Shown here piece after piece: positions 7,687-12,200 of a stretch of 18,058 nucleotides of DNA. The stretch is from positions 1 to 18,058 of the forward strand of contig JBHLQH010000050.1 of NCBI GenBank assembly GCA_048884965.1. The letters run 5' to 3'. The stretch is from Candidatus Thorarchaeota archaeon. GTDB taxonomy: Archaea > Asgardarchaeota > Thorarchaeia > Thorarchaeales > Thorarchaeaceae. Made by a program: the position numbers and the translations under genes. The notes under the pieces were generated by a model. That model was given only the letters and a program-made list of their open reading frames with translations. It did no database searches and had not been told where the DNA came from. Position 1 is the first letter of the stretch; every line of letters begins with the position of its first letter.

Positions 7687-7902
7687 TTAACGCAGGAAGC
7701 TGCTTCTGTAACTATCTGCACGGGTGCCGGACTTGAGCGCCTCAAGATCCTTGAGTGCCTGAGCTGATGCGATCTCGCATCGCTGGTACCTAGCCCCTTC
7801 GTCATACTCTAACCAACGGGCAGTCCGCTTTCGCACCTGGGATTTGATAGACTCAACAATCTGTCCAATCTTTGATTCTTGTTCTGTTACTAGTGTTTGC
7901 AT
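7687..7902 (-). CDS. Small soluble, probably helical hypothetical protein (71 aa)
   Basis: MQTLVTEQESKIGQIVESIKSQVRKRTARWLEYDEGARYQRCEIASAQALKDLEALKSG...; amphipathic composition, with its own TATA box upstream and a terminator downstream. Confidence 0.7.
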   Translation of the reverse strand: MQTLVTEQESKIGQIVESIKSQVRKRTARWLEYDEGARYQRCEIASAQALKDLEALKSGTRADSYRSSFLR

Positions 7903-7925
7903 CGTTATTACACACTCGTTGTTTA

Positions 7926-8088
7926 TGTGGTACCTTGGCAACACACCCTTCCTACTAGGTAAACGAGAGCAGGCATGAGCAGATCTTTCAGGGGGTCACT
8001 GGTTCAATACCTGCTTTACTATCCAGTTCTATCGTAGGAGGAATATTTGGCAGCGTAACGAAGGCTGTGTTGCCAATTATTAACCACA
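7926..8088 (-). ncRNA. Candidate structured 5' leader (long imperfect rod) of the 71-aa gene
   Basis: Nested inverted repeats 7926-7931/8083-8088, 7935-7951/8060-8076 (16 of 17 bp), 7951-7955/8034-8038 and 7968-7976/8007-8015; begins about 22 nt downstream of TTTATATA (8110-8117, minus). Confidence 0.5.
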
Positions 8089-8094
8089 ATGAAA

Positions 8095-8168
8095 TTTTGG
8101 GCAAGTTTGTATATAAATATAATGCCCAACGCAACTATTTTTGGTGTTTTTTTGGCAAGTTTTATATA
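8095..8168. promoter_or_regulatory. Divergent TATA boxes with repeated TTGG(G)CA operator-like motifs
   Basis: TTTATATA on minus (8110-8117) and on plus (8161-8168); TTGGGCA-N19-TGCCCAA (8097-8129) brackets the first; direct repeat TTTTGG(G)CAAGTTT(G)TATATA at 8095 and 8150. Confidence 0.6.
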
Positions 8169-8228
8169 CCATTTCTCCAAAATGAGCATAGTTGAGATAG
8201 AAGAAGGTGGACCACACTGGAGATAGCT

Positions 8229-9305
8229 TTGCCCCTAAATGACATAGACGTACAGATTCTGAAAGCACTGGAATTAGAAGGCGCAAAGACCTCGACCAGA
8301 GACTTGGGGAAGATACTTGATATCCCCGATAGGACCGTCAGATACAGGCTCAACCGTCTTCGAGAGAAGAAGATCCTTCATTCCCCCATCATCCAGACCT
8401 ACGAACGAAAGCTAGGCCTTGCAGAGAAGGTGCTCCTCCTCCGTTCAATCCCTTCAAAGGAGTCTGAACTTAAAGAAGTCTTGGATAAGATACCTATCTT
8501 CTATAACTATGCTCCAACCTATGGGAAGTTCGATGGGTTCATTGTATATTCCATGTTCCCCATAGCGGGCTCTCACATGATCGCTCGCTTAACACAAGAA
8601 ATGAAAGAATCGGGACTGATCGAGGCTTGCTATGAGTTCGATCTTGTTGACTACAAGAGAAAAGGAGCCAACGTGGATGCATTTCTTCCTGAGAGTGATT
8701 GGACTTGGGAAAAGTGGTACGCCCAGGTTGGCAAGATAATGGATGATTGTGAGAGGATTGACTTGGGCTTCGAAGAGTTCCCTCAGGTGGTGAGCTTTGA
8801 TTTCAAGGACATCCAGATTATCATGAATATGGTTGAGAATGCAGAGATCACATTGAAGGAGTTGAGCGACATTCTCGACATCTCCCAACCGCAGGTGCAT
8901 AAACGCATCAAGAATCTGGAGGATACTGGCATAATCAGAGGGTATAAGCCATCATTCATGCCTTTCAAGGACTATTCTACGATAAGTACCATTTTCAAAT
9001 CCCGTGAGCACGCTCAAGAGATTCTGTGTGCCTTCCATCGGTTACCCTTCTTTGTGGTCTTCTCAATGGAGACCAGAAATCACTTTTTCGTGACCCTATC
9101 GATTCCATCAAGCGATACAGATTATTTCCTCCAAGGAATCAATAAGCTCAAGCAATATGTGGATGAATTCTTCATTCAGACTCATCTCCGTGGCACTCAC
9201 AAGGGGCATCTCCACCTTCTTTCCACCTATAATCAGGATACTAAACAATGGGACATCCCAATGAGTGACTATGTCGAGATGATTCGATCTGCGTTATCAA
9301 AATAG
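8229..9305 (+). CDS. Tandem (duplicated) Lrp/AsnC-type winged-helix transcriptional regulator
   Basis: Two AsnC-type HTH units (LNDIDVQILKAL...TVRYRLNRL; FDFKDIQII...VHKRIKNLEDTGIIRGY), each followed by a RAM-like alpha/beta region. Confidence 0.88.
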   Translation: MPLNDIDVQILKALELEGAKTSTRDLGKILDIPDRTVRYRLNRLREKKILHSPIIQTYERKLGLAEKVLLLRSIPSKESELKEVLDKIPIFYNYAPTYGKFDGFIVYSMFPIAGSHMIARLTQEMKESGLIEACYEFDLVDYKRKGANVDAFLPESDWTWEKWYAQVGKIMDDCERIDLGFEEFPQVVSFDFKDIQIIMNMVENAEITLKELSDILDISQPQVHKRIKNLEDTGIIRGYKPSFMPFKDYSTISTIFKSREHAQEILCAFHRLPFFVVFSMETRNHFFVTLSIPSSDTDYFLQGINKLKQYVDEFFIQTHLRGTHKGHLHLLSTYNQDTKQWDIPMSDYVEMIRSALSK

Positions 9306-11883: not shown

Positions 11884-12200
11884 GGTGCAGCGGCTCACGA
11901 TGCATCGACTGTCCTTCTTCTGAGGAGCATGGACAGTGCGTTTCTCAAAGCAGCTACCTCTGAGGCTCCCACACCTAGCCTTAGGGCTGTTCCCGCCAGG
12001 GCCTGACCCATTTCGTCAATTTAAGACAATCAGAGCATTCCTACGAATGCACCTTTGTCCGTGCAAGACTTCAGAGACTCCTCGTCAACGTCCCGCACTG
12101 AAACTCATCAGGATCGGGGTTCAGCCTCCGCTGTGTTACTGACGCCACTATTGCCATGTGGTTGAAGCCGCGGCAAACGGCCCGTCCTTCCCGCTGCATC
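11884..12200 (-). ncRNA. ffs: Signal recognition particle RNA (archaeal 7S type)
   Basis: 317 nt closed by GATGCAGCGG/CCGCTGCACC (helix 1); helix 6 GCATTC-GTAG-GAATGC (GNAR loop); helix 8 GGGT-CAGG-CCC-TGGC-GGG-AACA-GCCC-TAAG; TTTTTAG box about 25 nt upstream; pyrimidine tract downstream. Confidence 0.88.

Follow-up and report, generated by a model that had tools for sequence, protein, structure and literature searches.

A covarying inverted repeat in the predicted leader of a small-protein gene divergent from a tandem Lrp/AsnC regulator in Thorarchaeota

Described systems and the setting of the locus

Characterised archaeal Lrp boxes are short, AT-rich sequences of 13-15 bp. In autoregulated Lrp/AsnC systems the regulator gene is divergent from its target, half-sites or palindromes lie across the TATA boxes, and the motif is not found outside the locus. 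At the RNA level, 5' UTR regulators that hide the ribosome-binding site, such as RNA thermometers and translational riboswitch platforms, hold a Shine-Dalgarno-like word upstream of the start codon in a covarying hairpin. The bacterial ompA-type 5' stabiliser stem-loops have a first nucleotide that is already paired and leave no single-stranded 5' tail. Few structured mRNA leaders are, to our knowledge, described in any archaeon, and a full-text literature search found nothing on control of genes at the RNA level in Thorarchaeota, nor on structured leaders in these or any other Asgard archaea.

The window analyzed here is the whole stretch of 18,058 nucleotides from the genome of a Candidatus Thorarchaeota archaeon, of which the assembly comprises 4.09 Mb in 99 contigs. 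An intergenic region of 326 nt separates the gene of a 71-aa protein (7687-7902, minus strand) from that of a divergent 358-aa regulator (8229-9305, plus strand). aIF5B is also encoded in the window. Orthologues of the 71-aa protein are 68 to 72 aa long and display 19 invariant columns across 11 aligned sequences. The protein is predicted to be one long helix, at a mean pLDDT of 74, and no relatives were found in Pfam or the PDB; a PDB profile search returned a weak stretch of ribosomal L21e (E 0.0017), which was judged untrustworthy. The regulator is a tandem protein of the Lrp/AsnC type with two HTH units, in which the Pfam HTH_AsnC-type domain is found twice. Each half resembles the single-unit Lrp/AsnC proteins in the PDB, the first half being PH1519-like, and relatives are named Thorarchaeota wHTH or Lrp regulator in public sources.

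The locus shares the above features of autoregulated Lrp/AsnC divergent promoters. It differs from them in that the regulator is a two-unit fusion and one half-site doubles as the arm of a covarying, putative RNA helix, and its half-site word and 18-19-nt spacers are different from the known archaeal boxes. A covarying hairpin around a Shine-Dalgarno-like word is likewise shared with the regulators that hide the ribosome-binding site, including wobbles or mismatches in some relatives and an overlapping helix (P0, see below) that competes near-equally in about half of the sequences. Unlike those regulators, the locus has no Rfam match, its hairpin is degraded in the window itself, and a conserved ligand pocket built of several helices is absent, the interior of the predicted rod being variable and deletable. 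As in ompA-type leaders, the predicted first nucleotide is already paired and no single-stranded 5' tail is left, and the leader is long compared with the others in the window. This 5' end, itself a predicted one, has its partner some 150 nt further downstream and not within a local hairpin, and the host is an archaeon with different decay enzymes.

We consider it probable that positions 8087 to 7903 form the structured 5' UTR of the mRNA of the small helical protein, specific to this lineage and embedded in an autoregulatory operator array. This reading draws on conservation, covariation, strand bias and promoter geometry, from which we infer transcription, the start site and the functional steps. 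An initial annotation of the window had described a long, possibly two-state RNA leader at this place. Its conserved structured element, belonging to no known family, lying in the predicted leader and distinct from a MITE, is upheld by our analysis, but its two-state switch is not.

Conservation and covariation of the long-range helix

The 17-nt arms of the inverted repeat given in the initial annotation, at 7935-7951 and 8060-8076, are real; they are 94% complementary (16/17) and 108 nt apart. The inner helix it proposed, pairing 7968-7976 with 8007-8015, is also found in minimum-energy folds, together with an outer extension of 5-6 bp between 7927-7931 and 8083-8087. The segment 7926-8088 folds at -55 kcal/mol on the minus strand (z -4.2, with 0 of 200 shuffles as good) and at -53 kcal/mol on the plus strand (z -2.8). 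On the minus strand, 8060-8076 is the 5' arm and 7935-7951 the 3' arm of a long-range helix, P1 (also called H1). The outer extension is named P0; its 5' strand (8083-8087, minus strand) constitutes the first five nucleotides of the predicted RNA and pairs with the 3' strand at 7927-7931 (minus strand). P0 has 4-5 bp in all ten sequences compared here, and one of its columns is U-A in six of them and U-G in the other four.

Inside the arms, the most sequence-conserved block of alignments A2 and A5 is located at 8025-8056 (minus strand). These approximately 30 nt are unpaired or weakly paired in minimum-energy folds, and no conserved pairing partner was found for them. On the RNA they contain a CCUCC word (GGAGG on the plus strand) after a U/A-rich run, as well as a half-site at 8047-8052. 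The remaining centre, 7952-8024 (minus strand), which includes the inner helix, is non-alignable between subgroups, has weak fold z-scores on both strands when composition is controlled, and is missing in one relative, L276. An ACTGG/CCAGT pairing, once suggested as an alternative to the inner helix, is present in the window and by eye absent from at least one more distant relative (L270). A metabolite riboswitch is not favoured: in so variable an interior only the short unpaired block is kept, and the lack of a conserved multi-helix core argues against this class.

Relatives were collected by searches with the small protein and the regulator, followed by contig look-ups. Ten distinct copies were obtained, namely the window, L022, L023 and L024 from genomes of the same genus, and L268, L269, L270, L274, L276 and L281 from metagenomic and NCBI contigs; the duplicates L271 (of L268) and L272 and L273 (of L024) were left out. 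In all ten, the element is situated between orthologues of the small gene and of the divergent tandem Lrp/AsnC regulator, and thus keeps a constant position upstream of the small-protein orthologues. No such element accompanies the more distant small-protein paralogues in other contexts. The small-protein gene had been missed by gene callers in L276 (557-1181) and L281 (446-1300), where an intact orthologue of 68-69 aa is present.

A consensus structure of 21 pairs, composed of P0 and the arm helix, was evaluated for the ten leaders in a plain MAFFT alignment (A5). The long-range helix is retained in all ten sequences. Paired cells account for 84.1% compared with 78.9% after shuffling, the covariation score is 0.222 compared with 0.140, and seven helix pairs are altered on both sides, each being reached by 0 of 500 shuffles; these counts overstate significance, since the ten sequences represent perhaps six independent lineages, and the consensus was read from the very sequences used for the covariation test. 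Sliding the 3' partner by one to three columns reduces pairing to 34-50%. The same covariation picture is given by a nine-sequence alignment. Five pairs of the shared core are invariant and hence uninformative on covariation. Nine pairs on the inner side of the core carry the signal. In three lineages (L024, L022/L023 and L281) the helix extends outward instead of inward, and the changes there are likewise compensatory. The spacing of the arms ranges from 27 nt in L276 to about 120 nt. A covariation check of the kind that the initial annotation had suggested for the leaders of homologues, made here by shuffling on ten leaders, reveals base pairs kept by compensatory change.

No family of Rfam 15 matched at its gathering score anywhere in the window, which agrees with the earlier impression of an element matching no known riboswitch family. 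With a permissive threshold, the region 7700-8300 gave four matches, all with E>7 and to unrelated eukaryotic or bacterial models, and ARAGORN predicted no tRNA or tmRNA gene in the window.

Terminal inverted repeats around a variable core of 100-150 nt are shared with MITEs and short palindromic mobile elements, and the initial annotation had named a MITE as the alternative. The inverted repeat might thus be the relic of an old palindromic, MITE-like insertion that persists in the intergenic region without function, and its terminal repeats of 17 to about 30 nt, its variable interior and the lack of this interior in L276 would conform to such an origin. However, a comparison of the 176-nt element with the 4.09-Mb genome returned only the self-match, the remainder being chance matches of 14-37 nt, and a single-copy element is not a MITE. 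A covariance model of the conserved 5' part found one copy in each of the four genomes of the genus, always at the same locus, and none in the other 82 of the 86 family genomes. The flanks of 7926-8088 are different, with no direct repeat or target-site duplication around the inverted repeat. Moreover, compensatory changes keep the arms paired across lineages whose regulators are only 44-70% identical, which is not what neutral decay would give. The MITE is accordingly not borne out, and we regard the relic as highly improbable.

Predicted promoter, folding strand and Shine-Dalgarno hairpin

The predicted promoter of the small gene contains the TATA box TTTATATA on the minus strand (8110-8117), at -30 to -23 from the G at 8087. 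This geometry is typical of archaeal promoters and fits the start site of about 8088 that had been proposed before; from the TATA spacing and its conservation we place the predicted +1 at 8087 (minus strand). The TATA box has exactly this distance from the G opening the conserved first word of the rod in eight of the ten sequences, and deviates by one or two bases in the remaining two. A pyrimidine at -1 and a purine at +1 are found throughout the ten. The 8-mer TTTATATA occurs 53 times on both strands of the 4.09 Mb, two of these within this intergenic region, while about 300 occurrences are expected by our own estimate from base composition. Being about six-fold under-represented genome-wide, the word can be taken as a meaningful signal. 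No conserved TATA-like box is found nearer to the small gene than 8117-8110. A proximal promoter that would yield a leaderless mRNA was rejected, given that the AT-rich box about 25 nt before the ATG is present in three relatives and not in group A.

From the predicted +1 follows a leader of about 185 nt, as proposed in the initial annotation, with 105-205 nt predicted in relatives. Pairing in P0 begins at the predicted +1 itself, so that the rod would run from the 5' end of the leader to about 25 nt before the ATG.

The initial annotation had left the folding strand open. For the long-range helix, the comparative data favour the sense strand of the small gene. Among the aligned pairs, 15 are G-U on the sense strand versus 3 on the antisense strand, and the arm duplexes of nine sequences contain 18 versus 4 such pairs. 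The two-arm duplex is more stable on the sense strand by 3-11 kcal/mol in all ten sequences. The clearest case is the 16-bp core helix of L276, in which three G-U pairs become A-C mismatches when the plus strand is folded. Such an asymmetry has no cause in duplex DNA, and we therefore take the helix to be an RNA structure on the sense strand of the small gene. Part of the asymmetry could also come, without selection, from a C-to-T bias that accompanies transcription and affects the coding strand.

The strand preference is reversed for a local pairing. The initial annotation had pointed to a second partner of the 5' arm, at 8047-8054, and inferred from it a possible two-state switch. The partner exists and pairs with the arm, but enforcing this pairing makes the ensemble 3-22 kcal/mol worse than that of the long-range helix. 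Furthermore, the local palindrome, named O1 (8047-8076, unstranded; formed by the local partner and the 5' arm, with six-base half-sites 18 nt apart), folds better on the antisense strand in ten of ten sequences; this was calculated for the segment +1 to +51, whose mean z is about -3.1 antisense and -1.9 sense. It follows that part of the complementarity serves, or arises from, a DNA-level palindrome. A local hairpin followed by a U-run was also examined as an attenuator and rejected, as a U5 run is found only in G003 and G006 and the competing arm would be transcribed too late for antitermination.

The greater stability of the O1 hairpin on the plus strand raises the question of whether the functional transcript is the plus strand, either an antisense or independent sRNA ending at this hairpin or a transcript for which the hairpin is the terminator. 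Six T directly follow the hairpin in L269, and the inter-arm region, that is the conserved block with the variable centre, folds lower on the plus strand in seven of eight sequences. The T-run is however restricted to that relative, and for the variable centre either strand gives weak z-scores when composition is controlled. No conserved plus-strand TATA box is present upstream, an AT-rich box being found in three relatives and not in group A, and the helix H1 favours the minus strand. We judge a functional plus-strand transcript very unlikely and continue with the minus-strand leader.

Directly 3' of the rod, a small hairpin of 5 bp can be drawn in nine of the ten sequences. The Shine-Dalgarno-like word upstream of the ATG (7910-7917, minus strand) provides its 3' strand in the relatives with its first five nucleotides, and the Shine-Dalgarno region is thus held in a short, imperfect hairpin. 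Of its 50 cells, 44 are Watson-Crick and 3 are sense-strand wobbles. At one position three pair types occur, A-U (five or six sequences), G-C (two or three) and G-U (one), and in L269 both strands have changed to another pairing. The hairpin of the window itself is degraded, with one broken and one wobble pair. Its 5' strand overlaps the 3' strand of P0 (7927-7931) by 3 nt, so both cannot fully form together. In five of nine sequences, the ensembles with P0 enforced and with the small hairpin enforced are at most 2 kcal/mol apart. A near-balanced competition may therefore exist between this hairpin and the terminal helix of 4-5 bp, the only such alternative found in the modelled folds.

Operator-like palindromes and the proposed mode of control

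Besides O1, a second palindrome, O2 (8098-8128, unstranded), encloses the TATA box and is kept in the group-A relatives, and a third half-site (8152-8168, plus strand) stands beside the TATA box of the regulator gene, half-site first. The spacing of O1, read by eye in eight relatives and in L276, is 18 nt in the former and 14 in the latter. Palindromes of the O1/O2 type number only 13 in the whole genome, two of them adjacent here. The order of a half-site followed by a TATA box is found only twice in the genome, both times in this intergenic region. In all, five half-site-like words lie within about 330 bp, where 0.09 exact copies are expected, and the seven-base word of the putative operator half-sites recurs in the arms of the long-range helix. 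A role of this word as a genome-wide BRE-like promoter element was rejected, because only 1 of the 53 TATA words has a half-site upstream and the combination is confined to the locus. A degenerate pattern of O1 plus the start-site word, applied to metagenome and genome contigs, gave chance matches only among the matches listed after the neighbouring-word filter. In L022 and L023, about 120 extra nt lie between the shared TATA box and the regulator gene and contain further copies of the half-site word in both orientations.

The palindromes, their antisense preference and the locus-unique combination of half-site and TATA box lead us to read these sites as operators instead of an RNA switch. Palindromic sites repeated at the promoter of the regulator itself are what an Lrp/AsnC operator array presents, and O1, O2 and the third half-site are most plausibly putative operators of the adjacent tandem regulator, to which binding is assigned from this arrangement.

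The main rival to the RNA leader extends this assignment to both arms. All half-sites, including the arms, would be operators of the regulator, the left arm would serve cooperative binding or looping, and the pairing of the RNA would be a by-product. The density of half-site-like words, the two adjacent palindromes of one type with one around a TATA box, the half-site and TATA order unique to the locus, the fixed 18-nt spacing of O1, the poorer folding of the local palindrome on the sense strand, and the seven-base word common to arms and half-sites all suit such a purely DNA-level role. But the complementarity of the arms reaches 10-20 nt past the shared word and covaries at seven positions, and two protein sites need neither. 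The ratio of 15:3 in favour of one strand for G-U against A-C has no reason in duplex DNA, and an arm distance varying between 27 nt (L276) and about 120 nt is awkward for phased looping. We hold this rival to be unlikely, although it deserves to be kept in mind.

If the RNA leader is accepted, the TATA box at 8117-8110 would direct the start of the RNA at G 8087. The first 30 nt or so would then pair with about 30 nt ending some 25 nt before the start codon, through P0 (4-5 bp) and P1 (16-17 bp). Both helices would close the leader into a rod with a variable, dispensable tip and one conserved internal stretch that stays mostly unpaired. As mechanism we propose post-transcriptional control in cis, in which the closed rod would bury the 5' end and affect stability, and the competition between the rod and the small hairpin would set the accessibility of the ribosome-binding site. 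The conserved unpaired block would be the likely contact of a trans factor. Independently of this, the tandem Lrp/AsnC regulator probably controls how the two divergent genes are transcribed, by binding to O1, O2 and the third half-site.

One word could also work at two levels, the seven-base half-site being a DNA operator and at the same time the core of the mRNA helix that closes the leader. A trans factor, either the regulator or the small basic helical protein, would recognise the unpaired block and tip the equilibrium of the terminal helix with the hairpin at the ribosome-binding site. We propose this tentatively and find it improbable; if true, it would amount to a feedback module, particular to Thorarchaeota, that acts on transcription and translation together.

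The leader is a compact, testable candidate, with a covarying helix, a predicted 5' end and a hairpin at the ribosome-binding site, and it is tied to a conserved orphan protein and a two-unit Lrp regulator. Its confirmation would make post-transcriptional control in Asgard archaea accessible to study and provide a natural example of an operator palindrome and an RNA helix sharing sequence. The narrow distribution, in one genus and close metagenomic relatives, limits its reach.

A start codon is located exactly at the predicted +1 in the window (8019-8087, minus strand) and in its relatives, and marks either a leaderless frame or chance. It is GTG in nine of the ten sequences and ATG in L022/G003. 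Translation of a leaderless frame from +1 would remodel the rod and couple it to the small gene. Five group-A sequences keep this frame open over 22-24 codons, its end is preserved in L269 by two compensating single-base indels, and in L022/G003 it comprises 66 codons, with a stop that overlaps the start of the small gene. On the other hand, its length goes down to 7 codons in G006, the peptide is not conserved beyond the nucleotide-conserved blocks, and 22 open codons are expected by chance in about one third of sequences. GTG is also a poor leaderless start, and the start site is a predicted one. We regard a translated upstream frame of this kind as highly improbable.

Other coding possibilities were rejected. 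When the relatives were read by eye in six frames, indels break every frame across the conserved block. On the plus strand, a Shine-Dalgarno-like word with TTG or ATG after it begins frames that extend across the TATA boxes; they measure between 3 and about 55 codons and are not conserved.

The start codon of the regulator varies among close relatives (8207-8231 in the window). In L024/L272 it is a GTG inside a Shine-Dalgarno-like word, which is also the called start in L274. In the window and L268 the GTG within this word does not lie in the reading frame of the regulator, whose first standard start is there a TTG (8229), and an in-frame CTG at 8217 is conserved in the region.

Elsewhere in the window, positions 11887-12197 (minus strand) match the archaeal SRP RNA model RF01857 of Rfam over its full length with 84.5 bits (E 2e-19). 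Since this is below the gathering score of 96.5, the SRP RNA is missed by a default search. It is a divergent SRP RNA.
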